From NCBI GenBank assembly GCA_963782525.1, contig CAWAKC010000012.1, forward strand, positions 1 to 64,000: DNA of 64,000 nucleotides. The letters are read 5' to 3'. The position numbers and the translations under genes were made by a program. Shown here in pieces: positions 12,943 to 20,074 of the stretch; position 1 is the first letter of the stretch; the number at the start of each line of letters is the position of its first letter. The notes under the pieces are model-generated. The model was not told where the DNA came from. It searched no databases and saw only the letters and a program-made list of their open reading frames with translations. Source of the stretch: Candidatus Bathyarchaeota archaeon. Its GTDB lineage: Archaea; Thermoproteota; Bathyarchaeia; Bathyarchaeales; Bathycorpusculaceae.

Positions 12943-14784
12943 CTATTTTTTGGGTGTTTTAGCGGGTTCTTTCTTATCTGGCTTGGTTTCCATTTTTTCG
13001 GGTTTCGTTGTTTTGGTGTAGTAGTATTCGCCGATGTCTTTTTGGAATTTATCCATCTGGGAATCTTCTTTGTTTACTCTGGGGCGGTAAGTGACTGAGT
13101 CCCGTCTGAAGGTGATGTCCATTTCTTTAAGGAACGTGTTCATGCCCTGCCGAAGGCTGGTTGGTGGATGTGCTAAGCCGGATACTCCTGGTTCACCGTT
13201 GAAGACCATTAGGCGGTCTGCTATGAAGTCTTGAGTTACCACGTCGTGTTCAACTACGAAGGCTGGGATGCCGTGGGCTTCGACGACTCGACGTAGCGTT
13301 TTTGCCACATTTAAGCGTTCTTCAACGTCAAGGTATGCGCTTGGCTCGTCAAGCAGGAATAGGTCGGTTTTGCGGCTTAGGCACGCGGCGATGGCGACTT
13401 TTTGGAGTTCTCCGCCACTGAGTTCCATCACGTTTTTGTCCATTAGGATTTGTAGTCGGAGGGGCTGGGCGATTTCGGTTTTGTACCAGCTTGAAGTAAA
13501 GTTTTCCTTAGCCACGTTCATAAGTAGTTCTTGCACTGAACCTGCATAATCAGGCGCAATGTACTGGGGCTTGTAACTGACAGTTAACTTACTTAGTTGA
13601 CGTTTATCATCAGTCTCCTCCAGACCAGCTAAAATTTTGACGAAGGTAGTTTTTCCGATGCCGTTGGGTCCAAGAATTCCGATGATTTCGCCAGTTCGTA
13701 TCTCGCCTGGTTCGATGGCGAGCTTGAAGCCTTTGAAGGTTTTCTCCATTCTGTCCCATTTGAGTAGGGGATCGCCGACCATTTCGCCTGCGTTTGGCGG
13801 TTTTTCATGGAACACTATGGCTTCTTTTCGGAACATGATGTTCTCGTCTGGAATGTACCCTTGTAAGTAAATGTTAATACCTGTTCGGACTCCATGGGTG
13901 TGTGAGACGACGCCATAAACGCTTGGTTCTCCGTAGAAGACGCATATTTGGTCGGATAAGTAGTCGATGATGGCTAAGTCGTGTTCGGCTACAACGATGG
14001 TTTTTTGTTGTTCTTTGAGGCTGCGGATGGCTCTGGCAACTACAAGCCGCTGCTTCACGTCTAAGTAGCTGGAGGGCTCATCGAAAAGGTACACATCTGC
14101 TTCACGGCTAAGTGCTGCCGCAACCGCGACACGCTGAAGCTCCCCGCCACTGAGTACATCGAGTGGTCTATCCCAGATCTTCTTGAGCTCCAACTCCTCG
14201 GCGATGGCGTCAAGCAGTTTGCGTTCATCAACTTTTTCCAAGAGTTCACCAGCTTTGCCCGATACCGCCTTGGGAATTTTATCTACGTACTGCGGTTTGC
14301 TACTGACTTTAAGCTTCTTCTCGCTTAATTTCTGGAAGTAATCCTGAAGGCTTGAACCCCGATAATACTGAATGATCTCGGACCATTCGGGTGGGTCATC
14401 GAATCTGCCGAGGTTAGGTTTGATTTCGCCCGAAAAAACCTTAAGGGTAGTGCTTTTGCCTATGCCGTTTTGTCCCAGCAACCCCAAAACTGTCCCGGGC
14501 GAAGGCATGGGTAAACGATAAAGTTTGAAGCTGTTGGCGCTGAACCGGTGGCTACAATCTTTCTCGAGTTCGTCAGGTAGGTTGACGATGCTGATGGCTT
14601 TGAAAGGGCATTTTTTGACACAAATCCCACAGCCGCTGCAAAGTGTTTCAGCTATGACGGCTTTGGATCCTTCAACACGTATGGCTTCCACTCTGCTGCG
14701 TACCATGGGACAGAAGCTAACGCAGAGTGAATTGCATTTTTTGACTTTGCACTTGTCTTCGTTTAATACGGCAATTCGCGTCAT
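12943..14784 (-). CDS. rli1: ribosome recycling ATPase ABCE1/Rli1
   Basis: N-terminal Fe-S Cys motifs (CSGCGICVKKCPF), two ABC domains (GQNGIGKST, GPNGIGKTT, LSGGELQ x2). Confidence 0.97.
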   Translation of the reverse strand: MTRIAVLNEDKCKVKKCNSLCVSFCPMVRSRVEAIRVEGSKAVIAETLCSGCGICVKKCPFKAISIVNLPDELEKDCSHRFSANSFKLYRLPMPSPGTVLGLLGQNGIGKSTTLKVFSGEIKPNLGRFDDPPEWSEIIQYYRGSSLQDYFQKLSEKKLKVSSKPQYVDKIPKAVSGKAGELLEKVDERKLLDAIAEELELKKIWDRPLDVLSGGELQRVAVAAALSREADVYLFDEPSSYLDVKQRLVVARAIRSLKEQQKTIVVAEHDLAIIDYLSDQICVFYGEPSVYGVVSHTHGVRTGINIYLQGYIPDENIMFRKEAIVFHEKPPNAGEMVGDPLLKWDRMEKTFKGFKLAIEPGEIRTGEIIGILGPNGIGKTTFVKILAGLEETDDKRQLSKLTVSYKPQYIAPDYAGSVQELLMNVAKENFTSSWYKTEIAQPLRLQILMDKNVMELSGGELQKVAIAACLSRKTDLFLLDEPSAYLDVEERLNVAKTLRRVVEAHGIPAFVVEHDVVTQDFIADRLMVFNGEPGVSGLAHPPTSLRQGMNTFLKEMDITFRRDSVTYRPRVNKEDSQMDKFQKDIGEYYYTKTTKPEKMETKPDKKEPAKTPKK

Positions 14785-14959
14785 GTGTGGCGTCGTTTAA
14801 TGATGCCAACAGGATAGTAATAAATGTAAACCTCAAGGAAAAATAAACAAAAAGGAGAAATGGCTTTTTTCATCGGTTCAAGAAAACAACCTCAAAAACT
14901 CTGGAATAAATTGAAACTTAAAAGAAAAATAATACAAAAGTGCGGTATAGGCGTTTAGT

Positions 14960-15031
14960 TTACCATTCTTCTTCTTCCCATTCTTCATCTTCGCCTTCTT
15001 CCCATTCATCTTCTTCCTCTATGAACATCAT
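14960..15031 (-). CDS. acidic Trp-containing micropeptide MMFIEEEDEWEEGEDEEWEEEEW (23 aa)
   Basis: ATG..TAA ORF; SD GAGGTGA at 15047-15041, 9 nt before ATG; T-rich tract downstream. Confidence 0.65.
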   Translation of the reverse strand: MMFIEEEDEWEEGEDEEWEEEEW

Positions 15032-15237
15032 GTGTTTTTTTCACCTCACGAATAAGTCGTATATGCTACCCTACCCTCGGCAGGGTTTAAGCGTTTAGAT
15101 TCGTCAACTGACGTTAAAACCGTCCAATGCAATAGGTAGAAACATGGTTTCTGCACCTTTTTTCCTATTAATTTTAGGATTTTCAGCGGTAATTTTTTAA
15201 GGAAACGCCAACAAGAATGCTTCAAGAAGGCGATTGG

Positions 15238-15830
15238 ATGAGAAAAATCTTCAAAATAATCCTTGCAATCTTCGCAGTAGTAGTTGTTATAATAGTAGCG
15301 TTCGGAGCAATCATTCAACTAGATGTAGCAGCTATCACGGCTACGGGGTCGCAAACGCTGACGCCAACTGGAACCTCCGTTGGTAAGGCATTAGTAATCT
15401 ATGACCCTGGGCTATCAGGGACCGCAAAGGCGTCGCCGACAAAGTCGCCGCTGACCTGCAGGCAAAAAGCTATACTGTCACAGAGGCAGGCGTAAAAAGC
15501 CCAGCAGTCGCTAACACCACAGAGTACTCAGTAGTAGTTGTCGGCGGACCCGTTTATGCAGGCGCATTGACCAGCTCAGTGAAAGACTACCTAAACAATC
15601 TATCTGCAGGTCATGCGAGTCCAAGTTACGGACCTTACATTTTTACCAGAGTTGGGGTGTTCGGAAGCGGCCAAGGTGCAACCTCTCAAAACGATATAGA
15701 TATGATCAAAAACTCCGTAACGGCGCTCTCATCAAACGGTACCTTATCGAACGCAATTGTAGTTAAAATCGGGCAGAAAGAAGATCTCAACACAAGAGCC
15801 CAAGACTTCGTAAACCAACTAGTAACTTAA
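15238..15830 (+). pseudogene. membrane-anchored flavodoxin-like protein, frameshifted near 15428
   Basis: N-terminal TM, KALVIYDPGLSGT; continues in another frame as YSVVVVGGPVYAG..RVGVFGSG. Confidence 0.7.
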
Positions 15831-15919
15831 AAGAGTCTATACCAACTTTACCTTTCTTTTTCAACTTCTCCGTTTTCCTCTAATCAAAATAGATAAATCC
15901 GCACAGTCAACATTAAAGT

Positions 15920-15983
15920 GGGAATGATGTAAGGCGACGGCTTCGAGCATAAGCTGTGAGAAAACGTCAATCAACACTGACCC
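15920..15983 (+). ncRNA. box C/D methylation-guide sRNA candidate
   Basis: GGG/CCC terminal stem, box C ATGATGT (15924), D' TCGA (15943), C'-like TGTGA, box D CTGA (15977); guide GGCGACGGC complementary to TACK 16S GCCGTCGCC. Confidence 0.72.
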
Positions 15984-16131
15984 GAAAACCTACCCGTATA
16001 ACATACGGTAACATAGAAAAGAATCAACAGCTAAACTGTGCAAGATGCCAAATCATGGAATAATTTAAAATAACTCCTCTTGTTTATATGAAAGAAAACC
16101 ATTAAGAAAAGACGCAAGGAAGAAAATACAC

Positions 16132-16335
16132 ATGAGCGAAGAAGGCGACACATTCTGGGTATCATTAGCTGAAAGAGTCTTTGGATTAGCACTCATAATA
16201 ATTGGTGCAGTTATGATTTATTTCACAGCAACAAGCTCAAACGTTTTAGGCGGATTTACCTTGTTCTTCGGTGCATTAAGCGCCATTCTATTGATCGTGG
16301 GCATTGTTCTGCTGCTTGTCAAACCACCAGAATAA
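16132..16335 (+). CDS. small two-TM membrane protein
   Basis: 67 aa with two hydrophobic helices; TATA-like TTTATAT upstream. Confidence 0.75.
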   Translation: MSEEGDTFWVSLAERVFGLALIIIGAVMIYFTATSSNVLGGFTLFFGALSAILLIVGIVLLLVKPPE

Positions 16336-16341
16336 ACTTCT

Positions 16342-16658
16342 TTAGTCTCTTCTTTCAACAACAATTTTGCAGTTAGTAACTAAAGCAGCAATTACACCTA
16401 AAGCCGCCAACCATGGAGCCAAAACAAATCCAACCACACCCACAGTTGCAGGGATTTCAAGCAAAGTTTTACCTGCCTCATCCTTAACTATTACACGTGT
16501 CACATTTCCTTCATGTAATAATTCGCCGACGCGGTAACCAAGTTTTTACCTGAAACTGTGTATTCTTCCCTTGTAAACATGGGAGCCGCAGCTCCACAAA
16601 CCGTACAAAACTTGTCGTTGTTTTTTAGTGGAGCACCACATTTAACACAATATGGCAA
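16342..16658 (-). pseudogene. zinc-ribbon + DUF4342-like protein, one frameshift
   Basis: MPYCVKCG..DKFCTVCG, then after a frameshift near 16535 ELLHEGNVTRVIVKDEAGKTLLEIP..APWLAALG. Confidence 0.75.
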
Positions 16659-16953
16659 ACAATCACCAATCCAAAAAAGACAGTAACAGAATAAAATGTT
16701 TTCTACCCGAGCAAAATATACAAAGTGTGGCGCAACAAAAATATACTGAGTATTTTAAGATTTCATTTTAATAAATATTTATTAAGCAGCATTATGTTGG
16801 TGCAAATTTGAAAAGAAGTCAACAGTTGCGCTCTAAATAATTTTGAAGTCAAGAAATGTCTCTAAGACACAAAGGATGCCTAAATTTTAACATAAAAGTT
16901 TTACACAGTAGAAAAGAAAAAAGAGAAATGAAAGTTTTTTGCCGAGGTGTTAC

Positions 16954-17010
16954 TTACTTTTTCTTTGCCGGGGCTTTCTTTACTTCTTTTTTAACTGGTT
17001 TTTTTGCCAT
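16954..17010 (-). CDS. Lys-rich micropeptide MAKKPVKKEVKKAPAKKK (18 aa)
   Basis: ATG..TAA ORF; SD GAGGT 7 nt before ATG; TATA TTATAAAT at ~17057-17050; T-rich tract downstream. Confidence 0.65.
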   Translation of the reverse strand: MAKKPVKKEVKKAPAKKK

Positions 17011-17136
17011 TGAAATAACCTCGGGATTCAATGTATGATAGCTATTGGTATTTATAACTTGCTAAATCGAGGAGAAAACAGATAACAAAGCTTAATACTT
17101 ACTTGAAAAGAAAAAGAGACTGTGGATGAAGTTGCT

Positions 17137-17358
17137 ATGAATGAATTAGAAATATCTGTGGCTCCGATGATTAGATTATGCAAGAAAGCGGGAGCAAAAA
17201 GGGTGAGTGGGGAAGCGGCTAAGGAGCTTGCAAGAGTCCTTGATGAGATTGGCGTTAAGATTGCAAAAGAAGCATGGGATTACGCTACATATGCTGGAAG
17301 AAAGACAATTAAAGCGGAAGATATTGAAATCGCTGTTAGAAAAGTAATGGTAAAATAG
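17137..17358 (+). CDS. archaeal histone (HMf-type histone fold)
   Basis: APM.RL.KKAGAKRVS.EA...L...AGRKTIKAEDI; alternative GTG start at 17122. Confidence 0.95.
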   Translation: MNELEISVAPMIRLCKKAGAKRVSGEAAKELARVLDEIGVKIAKEAWDYATYAGRKTIKAEDIEIAVRKVMVK

Positions 17359-17686
17359 TTACATAATGGCACAAATGCACCTTTTCTTACCTTTCTATGA
17401 AGATTTGTTTTAAAATCTTATTTGATTTAGGAAAAAGGAAATGAGGGTGACAGCTCCATCGAGTAGAGTGTTTCGAATTTCCCCTGAAATAATAAATCAA
17501 AGAAAATGTGTTGGCATCTTGTCAGTAAATTTTTTAGAAAGGCAGCATTTGAGAATCTAAGATAGAATTATAGCCATACAAGCAATGCCAAGTAAGCGCT
17601 TGCAACATTAATGTTCCTTAAGAAACTCAACGAATGTTAAGGCTTATAAACAAAAAACGCTAAACCACTGAACGGGGCTGAAAAAA

Positions 17687-17908
17687 TTGGTGAATGAAGA
17701 GAACTTGGTGTCAATAAACATTAGTCGAAAAAATGGGGAAATTCGATATAAAGTAGATTGTTCTAAAAATGTGTCAAGTGATGAGTTAGCGCATTACCTG
17801 GATGAAATAATTGAGGGCATTTGCACATGGAAACCAGAAGTTTGCGAAGAGACCATTAAAACTATAATTGGAACAATCAAAATAAAGGAAAAAAATCCCC
17901 AAAAATAA
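17687..17908 (+). CDS. hypothetical protein
   Basis: 73-aa ORF with upstream TATA (TTATAAA); no recognised motif. Confidence 0.55.
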   Translation: MVNEENLVSINISRKNGEIRYKVDCSKNVSSDELAHYLDEIIEGICTWKPEVCEETIKTIIGTIKIKEKNPQK

Positions 17909-18138
17909 GGCACATACTTAATTTAAACAAAAAATCAAACGAATTCCTTGGGATACCTTCCTTTCTACAAAAAGACGAAAAATTGAGGATGCTAAAAAAT
18001 CCTCTTTTCGAATCATAGCATTATAGACCGGTTTTAATTAAACCAAAGTCAAATGAATACTTTGATACATGAATATTTTAATAATCATCAACCATTACAA
18101 TCATCCAGCTATCAATTGTTACAGGAGAAAAACGGAAA

Positions 18139-19923
18139 ATGCCCACGCGCCAACCAATAGTTTGTGTTTTAGGACATGTAGATGCAGGCAAAACCTCACT
18201 GCTAGATGAGTTACGAAAAACCAATGTGCAGCTTCGTGAAGCTGGAGGAATGACCCAGCACATAGGCGCGAGCTATTTCCCCGTGGAAACTCTAAAACAG
18301 CTAATTGGACCATACATGGTCAACTTTAAAACAGGCATCGAAATCCCAGGGTTACTAATCGTGGATACGCCTGGGCATGAAGCATTCACTAACCTTAGGC
18401 GCAGAGGCGGAAGCGTTGCGGACATCGCAATCCTGGTTGTTAATGCGGTGCGTGGGTTTGAAGCTCAAACCTTCGAATGTATAGATATTCTCAAAGCGCG
18501 CAAAACACCCTTCATCGTAGCGGTAAACCAAATCGACCGCATTCCTGGCTGGAAGCCTCAGCAAGGAGCGCCTTTTATGAAATCTTTTGCTGCCCAGTCA
18601 AGTTTTGTTCAGGACGAAGTAAACAATAGTCTCTACCGAGTTATGGGTGATTTTAGCCGTTTAGGTTTTAAAACTGACCGCTTTGACCATATCCGAGATT
18701 TCACACAAAACATTGCGTTAGTTCCGACGAGCGCCAAAACTGGTGAGGGCTTATCTGAACTCGTTATGGTGTTAGTCGGATTAACTCAGCAATTCCTTAA
18801 AAAACGCCTGCAGACAACAGATGGCGCTGCAAAAGGCTCCATTTTGGAAGTTAAAGAGGAACCAGGCTTGGGAATGACACTCAATGCGATTGTCTATGAC
18901 GGCACTCTTCATCGAGATGATTTGATTGTTGTCGGCGGCAAAAACGGGCCAATTTCGGCACGCGTACGAACGATTCTGGTTCCTAAACCACTCGATGAGA
19001 TGCGTGACCCTCGCGACAAATTCACAAGCGTCGACTGTGTCTATGCAAGTGCTGGTGTCAAAATTGTTGCCCCAGACCTGGATGGCGCATTGGCTGGTGC
19101 ACCATTATTTGCTGTTCCTGAAGGTGAAGACGTCTCCAAATACTGCAAGCTCATCACTGAAGAAATTGGTAGAATCAGAATAACTAAGGAAATCGATGGA
19201 GTCATCGTGAAAGCGGACACTTTAGGTTCACTTGAGGCCATGGCTGAAATCTTAAAAGCCAACAATATCCAAGTCCGTATCGCCGACATCGGCGACATCA
19301 GCAAACGCGACGTCATCGAAGCTTCCGTGGTGAAGACGCGTCAACCTTTAGTCGGTGCAATCTTAGCATTCGGTGTAAAAGTATTGCCTGATGCTGAAAT
19401 TGAAGCTGAGGCAAATGGAGTTAAAATCTTCAAGGACCCAATCATCTATAACCTAATCGACAACTACTTGGAATGGGCAAAGAATAAGCGAGAAGCTAAA
19501 AGCGAAGAGGAATTTGAAAGACTTGTTAAACCGGGAAAAGTCACTGTGCTGCCCAACTGCATTTTCCGCCGCGCTAAACCATTAGTGGTTGGCGTGGAAG
19601 TCTTAGCGGGCAGACTAAAACCAAAAGTTTCTCTTATGCGCGCAGAAGACAGCTCAGATTTAGGTGAAGTGGATCAGATTCAAGATCAAGGTAAAGCAAT
19701 CGGTGAAGCTAAAGCAGGGATGCAGGTGGCGATTTCTATGGATAAACCAATTGCTGGACGCCATGTGTTCGAGAAGGATGTTTTGTATGTTAAGGTCCCT
19801 GAAGCTGATGCAAAAAAACTGTTAACGGCACATATGGATGACTTAACCAGCGAAGAGCAGGATCTGCTTAAAGAGTTCATTGCGTTCATGCGCAAGAAGA
19901 CCCTGTTCTGGGCTGGAGTCTAA
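18139..19923 (+). CDS. infB: translation initiation factor aIF5B (IF2)
   Basis: RQPIVCVLGHVDAGKT, GGMTQHIGA, DTPGHEAF.NLR.RGG, KADTLGSLEA. Confidence 0.97.
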   Translation: MPTRQPIVCVLGHVDAGKTSLLDELRKTNVQLREAGGMTQHIGASYFPVETLKQLIGPYMVNFKTGIEIPGLLIVDTPGHEAFTNLRRRGGSVADIAILVVNAVRGFEAQTFECIDILKARKTPFIVAVNQIDRIPGWKPQQGAPFMKSFAAQSSFVQDEVNNSLYRVMGDFSRLGFKTDRFDHIRDFTQNIALVPTSAKTGEGLSELVMVLVGLTQQFLKKRLQTTDGAAKGSILEVKEEPGLGMTLNAIVYDGTLHRDDLIVVGGKNGPISARVRTILVPKPLDEMRDPRDKFTSVDCVYASAGVKIVAPDLDGALAGAPLFAVPEGEDVSKYCKLITEEIGRIRITKEIDGVIVKADTLGSLEAMAEILKANNIQVRIADIGDISKRDVIEASVVKTRQPLVGAILAFGVKVLPDAEIEAEANGVKIFKDPIIYNLIDNYLEWAKNKREAKSEEEFERLVKPGKVTVLPNCIFRRAKPLVVGVEVLAGRLKPKVSLMRAEDSSDLGEVDQIQDQGKAIGEAKAGMQVAISMDKPIAGRHVFEKDVLYVKVPEADAKKLLTAHMDDLTSEEQDLLKEFIAFMRKKTLFWAGV

Positions 19924-20074
19924 AAACATTAGTTGGCTAAGAAAGAGCAAACGCCCTTTCTCCCCCTTCCACAATTTTTTTGTTTATCCGTTGAAAAAGT
20001 CAATAAACTTTAGTCCATTAGGTTTCTCCGCTGAAATCTATTAGGATTCAAATTTGTTGGCTCTACTAAAAACT

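Follow-up and report, generated by a model that had tools for sequence, protein, structure and literature searches.

Does a lysine-rich reading frame of only 18 codons, lying head-to-head with an archaeal histone gene, encode a protein, and would such a protein act on histone-bound DNA? The question is raised by a locus in a 64,000-nt stretch of a Candidatus Bathyarchaeota contig (hereafter the window), where an ORF encoding MAKKPVKKEVKKAPAKKK and ending in TAA runs on the (-) strand from 17010 to 16954 (ATG 17010-17008, TAA 16956-16954). Nine of its 18 residues are Lys, the others being four Ala, two Pro, two Val, one Glu and one Met. This is the H1-tail-like K/A/P composition that an earlier sequence-only reading of the locus had pointed out, and it can be read directly from the sequence.

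A GAGGT Shine-Dalgarno (SD) site (17018..17022, (-)) is located 7 nt 5' of the ATG, inside or overlapping an invariant CCGAGG hexamer (17024-17019), and a TATA box, TTATAAAT (17050..17057, (-)), follows about 43 nt 5' of the ATG and is conserved in 12 of 12 aligned sequences. From the usual archaeal TATA spacing, transcription is predicted to start near 17027. At the other end, an oligo-T, terminator-like T-rich tract (~16911..16926, (-)) closes the unit and is kept in the same alignment. The whole unit matches our covariance model R1 at 16909..17031 (-) with 128.4 bits (E 4.9e-23). Just 3' of the stop codon, a non-coding CCTCGG hexamer (16942..16947, (-)), invariant in 12 of 12 sequences, forms the exact complement of CCGAGG. 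For this hexamer we can only infer a role: its pairing with CCGAGG could close a short mRNA or mask the SD site, and no covariation is seen within a type of unit. A possible upstream extension of the ORF from a TTG codon, giving 25 aa, is not conserved and is interrupted in relatives by a frame shift or an in-frame TAA.

On the opposite strand, a histone gene of 73 codons starting MNEL (17137..17358, (+)) matches PF00808 with 48.9 bits (cut-off 21.4; E 8.2e-13), and its product carries neither an N-terminal nor a C-terminal tail. The start codons of the two genes are separated by 126 nt, or by 111 nt when a non-conserved GTG at 17122 is counted, in agreement with the divergent HMf-type histone at ~110-125 bp given by the sequence-only reading, whose other anatomical items (the ORF with half of its residues Lys, the GAGGT site, the box and the T-rich tract) were likewise all correct. 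A promoter-like element of the histone, AAAGCTTAATAC (17087..17098, (+)), lies 33 bp from the TATA box of the micro-gene. The part of the spacer that contains it also matches upstream of a second histone in the same genome, which has no peptide unit.

Two further features of the surroundings were observed. Downstream of the micro-gene (16342-16658, (-)), two small genes overlap by 4 nt, one for a zinc-ribbon protein of 52 aa (PF13240) and the other for a DUF4342 protein of 53 aa; in the close relatives L004 and L005 the pair is one longer frame. A tRNA T-arm-like element, consisting of a GGTGACAnCTCCA core and then a GGTTCAAATCC-like stretch, is located 3' of the histone (17445-17500, (+)), has four copies in the genome and follows the histone in ~8 of 46 related loci. 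The idea of a tRNA fragment marking an att site was dropped, as the element matches none of the genome's 37 tRNAs; a match in Rfam was also not found. A small RNA, the remnant of a tRNA and a relic of an integration site are all conceivable identities.

The GC content of the micro-gene region is 0.30-0.32 compared to 0.43 genome-wide, and a Lys-rich ORF arising by chance therefore had to be excluded. We screened the 126,541 ORFs of 10-40 aa in this 2.87-Mb genome and found 85 with at least 40% Lys. Only two of these also possess an SD site, a TATA box and a T-tract, namely the micro-gene itself and one paralogue on contig C4. A DNA search recovered the unit from 11 of 24 congeneric genomes and from none of 16 genomes belonging to other families of the order. 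The resulting alignment of 12 sequences showed an invariant TATA box, SD site and stop codon, with homology between species ending just past the T-tract. Within the ORF, the start codon swaps between ATG and GTG, AAA/AAG and CCA/CCG vary at the wobble position, all four GCN codons are used for Ala-2, and indels occur only in multiples of three.

To extend this comparison, R1 was run on 120 genomes of the genus, 67 of which gave matches at E up to 0.001. The strong matches (119-152 bits), hereafter type 1, comprise 51 copies in 45 of the 120 genomes. The ORF is intact in every copy, with a length of 54 nt (n = 7), 57 nt (n = 41) or 60 nt (n = 3), starting with GTG in 30 and ATG in 21 and ending in TAA in all 51. 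When the 36 different sequences of 57 nt were compared, variation was seen in 4 of 17 columns at the first codon position, in 5 at the second and in 11 at the third, and the pooled pN/pS is 0.152 in frame compared to 1.12 and 0.77 in the shifted frames. The check for synonymous-biased substitutions proposed with the sequence-only reading thus came out in favor of coding, and the conserved ORF and SD site near histones, whose absence in relatives it had named as evidence against its proposal, are present. Lys positions are kept across the 51 copies, and selection also acts on non-Lys residues (Ala-2, Pro-5 and Ala-Pro 13-14).

These patterns bear on the possibility that the locus is not a gene, being either a chance ORF in an AT-rich spacer or a purine-rich non-coding RNA. 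Base composition speaks for it, since AT-rich DNA yields Lys codons by chance, as does a length below that considered by gene callers. The codon-position pattern, the constraint confined to one frame, the in-frame indels, the start-codon switch and the uniform stop codon all argue against it. A structured RNA was also rejected: Rfam 15 gave no match at E up to 1 in window positions 14000-20000, the single sequence folds more weakly than shuffled versions of it (z-score +1.19), and the lone consensus helix from RNAalifold, formed by the SD hexamer and CCTCGG, is invariant with no compensatory pairs. We therefore regard the non-gene explanation as exceedingly improbable. Contigs from three metatranscriptome runs (two studies; 4-6% of words) cover positions 16906-17177 in pieces. 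They bridge both promoters and extend past the T-tract, so that they do not delineate a discrete transcript and may stem from DNA carry-over; we count them neither for nor against expression. Taken together, the comparative data identify a stand-alone protein-coding unit that is under purifying selection and equipped with its own promoter, SD site and oligo-T end, and the micro-gene is very probably a real, translated gene.

The second part of the question concerns the histone. Being peptide-first, the covariance search is unbiased with respect to this neighbor. A histone was found no more than 1 kb from 46 of the 51 type-1 copies (46 of 49 when only assessable copies are considered). Divergent pairs account for 42 of these loci, with start codons 125-129 nt apart in 33 and 259-764 nt apart in 9; in the four remaining pairs, which are tandem, the unit comes after the histone. 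Five copies lack a histone, two because they are at a contig edge, while the other three are intact and truly separate. These three occur in two genomes, in which the only histone is either 428 kb away or on another contig. As 130-640 extra bases lie between both promoters in nine loci and four pairs are in tandem, a shared regulatory region of the kind put forward by the sequence-only reading is not needed.

The outer 650-bp flanks, compared with blastn and tblastx, fall into 35-36 clusters in 46 loci on the peptide side and 32 clusters in 45 loci on the histone side. With unrelated flanks and a retained pair, the two genes have stayed together through many rearrangements, among them insertions and an inversion within the pair's own spacer. 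A conserved non-coding insert of ~290 bp is present between histone and unit at five loci (L010, L011, L126, L129 and L142), and a shorter form at L015.

A complementary, histone-first search gave 328 relatives, which with a few oddly labelled exceptions carry the label Bathyarchaeota or Bathyarchaeia, and 80 loci were kept. The unit was present in 33 of the 80, intact in each case, and no comparable micro-ORF was found at the remaining 47 histone loci, which include Bathycorpusculum and hot-spring lineages. In the histone tree, a branch with 98/93 support separates 35 rows, of which 33 have the unit, from 47 rows, of which one has it; the second, unit-less histone of our genome belongs to the latter side. 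One of the two unit-less exceptions among the 35 is near a contig end. Histones linked to the unit hence form one genus-specific clade. Some Bathyarchaeia-type histone loci (L066, L095 and L043) are found in MAGs labelled Candidatus Sulfotelmatobacter (Acidobacteriota) and Nitrososphaerota, which are probably binning or labelling errors in public records.

No histone fused to a Lys-rich tail was found in the best 120 of 1107 histone relatives. Of these 120, 117 are 73-82 aa long, and the three longer ones (86, 92 and 102 aa) owe their length to start codons called further upstream and have no K-rich tail. On viral contigs, 29 pattern matches were obtained, none of which was a histone relative.

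Together, the type-1 micro-gene and its genus-specific, tail-less histone paralogue constitute a conserved two-gene module. As evidence for a functional tie, we would rate the pairing as real but modest, given that the genomes are related to one another, that only a short spacer separates the genes and that their association probably has a single origin; adjacency over a 126-nt spacer can persist by inheritance alone. The synteny proposed for testing the sequence-only reading was recovered within the genus, and in the genomes sampled the unit was not found near histones beyond one Bathyarchaeia family.

The weaker R1 matches (37-76 bits) turned out to be paralogues organized like type 1. They combine a TATA box of the TTTTAAATA type and a TGAGGT motif with a Lys-rich ORF that starts with GTG or TTG, ends in TAA and is followed by a T-tract. 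Across the family, ORFs of 16-19 residues were seen, together with one variant of 26 residues. The paralogue in our genome, a 16-aa ORF encoding MAKAPKKDDKKAKKKK (contig C4 119084-119034, (-)), represents type 2; its whole unit, with TATA box, SD site and T-tract, spans C4 118993-119105 (-), corresponding to L099:1494-1606. In all 11 type-2 loci examined, the T-tract lies ~140 nt upstream of the start of a co-oriented pyrD (PF01180), which has its own conserved promoter-like motif and SD site after the T-tract. The gene following pyrD has no Pfam match and looks to us like pyrK. All 11 type-2 ORFs are intact with a length of 51 nt, and their pN/pS of 0.22, compared to 0.84 and 3.35 off frame, indicates that the type-2 ORF is under purifying selection as well. 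Type-2 units carry CCTCA before the T-tract, opposite the TGAGG of their SD site.

Type-3 units of 16-19 aa occur in two other genera (L113-L117), directly upstream of a tandem bacterioferritin-like gene in five of five loci. The product of this neighbor is 326-347 aa long, and its best solved relatives are bacterioferritins (E 3e-13); an assignment as Dps was rejected because the DPS-like match is weaker (E 4e-7). Types 2 and 3 share a co-oriented position ~80-140 nt upstream of their neighbor, and further variants of 18, 19 and 26 aa were found in other contexts. Samples of the order and the class gave matches within the window's own family in 14 of 35 and 6 of 15 genomes, respectively, and in none of the 90 and 131 sampled genomes of the remaining families, with search filters that lose weak matches. 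A lone, doubtful match in another family has no SD site. In these genome samples, the micro-gene family thus appears confined to one Bathyarchaeia family.

The sequence-only reading had interpreted the peptide as a histone tail supplied in trans. Persistent pairing with a tail-less histone despite unrelated flanks is in its favor, but paralogues at loci without a histone (pyrD, the bacterioferritin-like gene and elsewhere) indicate that the family is not a histone accessory as such. The proposal is weakened further by the three intact copies unlinked from their genome's histone and by the lack of a fused form among the best 120 histone relatives.

What, then, would the peptide do? With nine Lys and one Glu in 18 residues, and prolines that disfavor a helix, the product is expected to be free and unstructured. 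Selection on Lys positions and on Ala/Pro spacing, in a peptide whose length precludes folding, is indicative of a diffusible polycation. We consider it likely that the peptide binds a polyanion or nucleic acid. In the mechanism we propose, its action would be in trans, through binding to a polyanion that is most probably nucleic acid, and for type 1 the favored target would be DNA wrapped by the linked histone, a step inferred from the lasting pairing with a tail-less histone. There, the peptide would neutralize charge and aid compaction, similar to the C-terminal domain of H1, protamines or adenovirus mu. As a whole, a free, Lys-rich, nucleic-acid-binding polycation with chromatin as its favored target is our best explanation, which we put forward tentatively at somewhat below even confidence. 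That the peptide is specific to histone chromatin is doubtful, and it seems unlikely that it is a diffusible tail or linker dedicated to one histone paralogue and expressed from a back-to-back promoter.

Among the alternatives, an RNA- or ribosome-associated polycation is a serious rival. Here the peptide would bind rRNA or other RNA, either as a ribosomal-protein extension acting in trans or in the manner of eL41-type mini-proteins, and the position next to the histone would only be inherited. The paralogues at non-chromatin loci fit this idea, as do the intact copies that persist unlinked from a histone. Moreover, K/E/A/P-rich segments of longer proteins in the same genome proved to be the C-terminal tails of uL29, uL18 and eL32, and this shared composition makes RNA or the ribosome an equally natural target. 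Yet no examined copy is located within a ribosomal-protein operon, and the histone link is kept across 32-36 flank contexts. The eL41 profile PF05162 also found no significant match in the genome, its best hit, elsewhere on C7, being below the cut-off (14.3 bits, E 0.2); with its 25 positions, this profile is insensitive, as control genomes remain below the cut-off too. We judge RNA or ribosome binding to be rather unlikely. A different polyanion such as polyphosphate could be bound instead, as for the bacterial protein AlgP, which is suggested by composition only; none of the loci examined has a linked polyphosphate gene, and we consider this very improbable.

The remaining alternative dispenses with a role for the peptide and sees in the unit a cis-acting mini-cistron, in which a leader rich in Lys codons tunes the neighboring gene by attenuation, promoter interference or supercoiling. 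It would account for the fact that each type keeps a single neighbor (histone in 46 of 51 loci, pyrD in all 11 and the ferritin-like gene in all 5), that types 2 and 3 are placed 5' of and co-oriented with that neighbor, and that an invariant anti-SD hexamer follows the type-1 stop codon. However, the type-1 unit closes with a T-tract, and the gene downstream of it is variable. Together with the independent promoters, this argues against classical attenuation. An attenuator leader would be expected to share its transcript with a conserved, regulated gene downstream and to form alternative terminator and antiterminator hairpins, whereas type-1 units show 35-36 downstream flank clusters in 46 loci and no alternative hairpins. 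In type 2, pyrD retains its own promoter-like motif and SD site beyond the T-tract; in type 1, the two promoters can be split by inserted bases or the pair arranged in tandem. The absence of compensatory pairs, the weak fold and the selection on residues other than Lys are also unfavorable to a purely regulatory leader. We therefore hold cis-regulation to be improbable.

Among known systems, a close resemblance is to the C-terminal domain of eukaryotic H1 and to the stand-alone, tail-only H1 of kinetoplastids: all are rich in Lys, Ala and Pro, of low complexity, cationic and presumably disordered, and like the H1 C-terminal domain, the micropeptide would act beside histone-wrapped DNA. Linker histones H1/H5 (Pfam PF00538) have a winged-helix globular domain of ~75 residues. 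The micropeptide has 18 residues with neither this domain nor an S/TPKK motif; even its longest possible frame (25 aa) matched no Pfam family at E up to 0.01, and the lack of a globular domain places it outside the H1 family. In contrast to H1, it is encoded by an archaeal gene of its own with paralogues at non-chromatin loci, and the likeness is one of composition only.

Similar K/A/P-rich compositions are found in prokaryotes in Hc1/Hc2 of Chlamydia and AlgP of Pseudomonas. These proteins are ~100-350 residues long and contain many repeats, whereas the micropeptide is a single unit of 16-19 residues and is compared by composition only. Polyphosphate binding has been reported for AlgP, a bacterial H1-like protein (PMC9239181); the micropeptide would probably share the binding of polyanions.

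Adenovirus mu and the protamines are very short, highly basic and Arg-rich, and condense DNA; mu is cut from a precursor and acts in virions, protamines act in sperm. The micropeptide is likewise very short and highly basic but Lys-rich and cellular, and it would be translated directly.

Within archaea, tailed histones were described for Heimdallarchaeota LC_3, Huberarchaea and Bathyarchaeota B23 (Henneman et al. 2018, PMC6136690). They resemble the module described here in associating a basic, Lys-bearing element with an archaeal histone, and one of them is from Bathyarchaeota, but their tails are fused to the histone fold, whereas here a tail-less histone is accompanied by a separate, divergent peptide gene. 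As noted in a review (PMC10919886), Lys-rich tails arise readily from AT-rich flanks. Ribosomal proteins with Lys-rich extensions are the subject of another review (PMC11764897). In our genome, uL29, uL18 and eL32 (contig C1 195859-202281, L168) possess long K/E/A/P-rich C-terminal extensions, the eL32 domain ending at residue 128 of 186. Compared to the micropeptide, these extensions are alike in composition, come from the same organism and bind nucleic acid, as the peptide is proposed to do, but they are covalently attached to folded ribosomal proteins, while the micropeptide is free and encoded outside ribosomal operons.

In the full-text literature, subscription journals aside, we found no description of free-standing Lys-rich micro-genes in archaea. 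Small Lys-rich polycations that bind nucleic acids were already known; the unusual feature is the conserved gene module formed by such a micro-gene and a histone paralogue. As genes of this length escape standard annotation, a family that is conserved and under selection exposes a real gap in the gene catalogue, and this gap concerns a major archaeal group of soil and peat. Should the peptide turn out to bind RNA or the ribosome, or to act as a cis-regulator, the family would still be useful as a compact, well-defined model of what micro-proteins do in archaea.

If the type-1 peptide is such a dedicated tail or linker, the basic element that promotes compaction of chromatin would come in trans and could be dosed apart from the histone fold, and a Bathyarchaeia lineage would have evolved a two-gene chromatin module consisting of a tail-less histone and an 18-residue, H1-tail-like polycation. 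If the peptide acts on histone-DNA complexes, the basic-tail function of chromatin would be able to evolve in the form of a gene product of its own, which would bear on the origin of tails and linker histones. More widely, stand-alone Lys-rich mini-genes could be overlooked components of the archaeal nucleoid that gene callers have missed.
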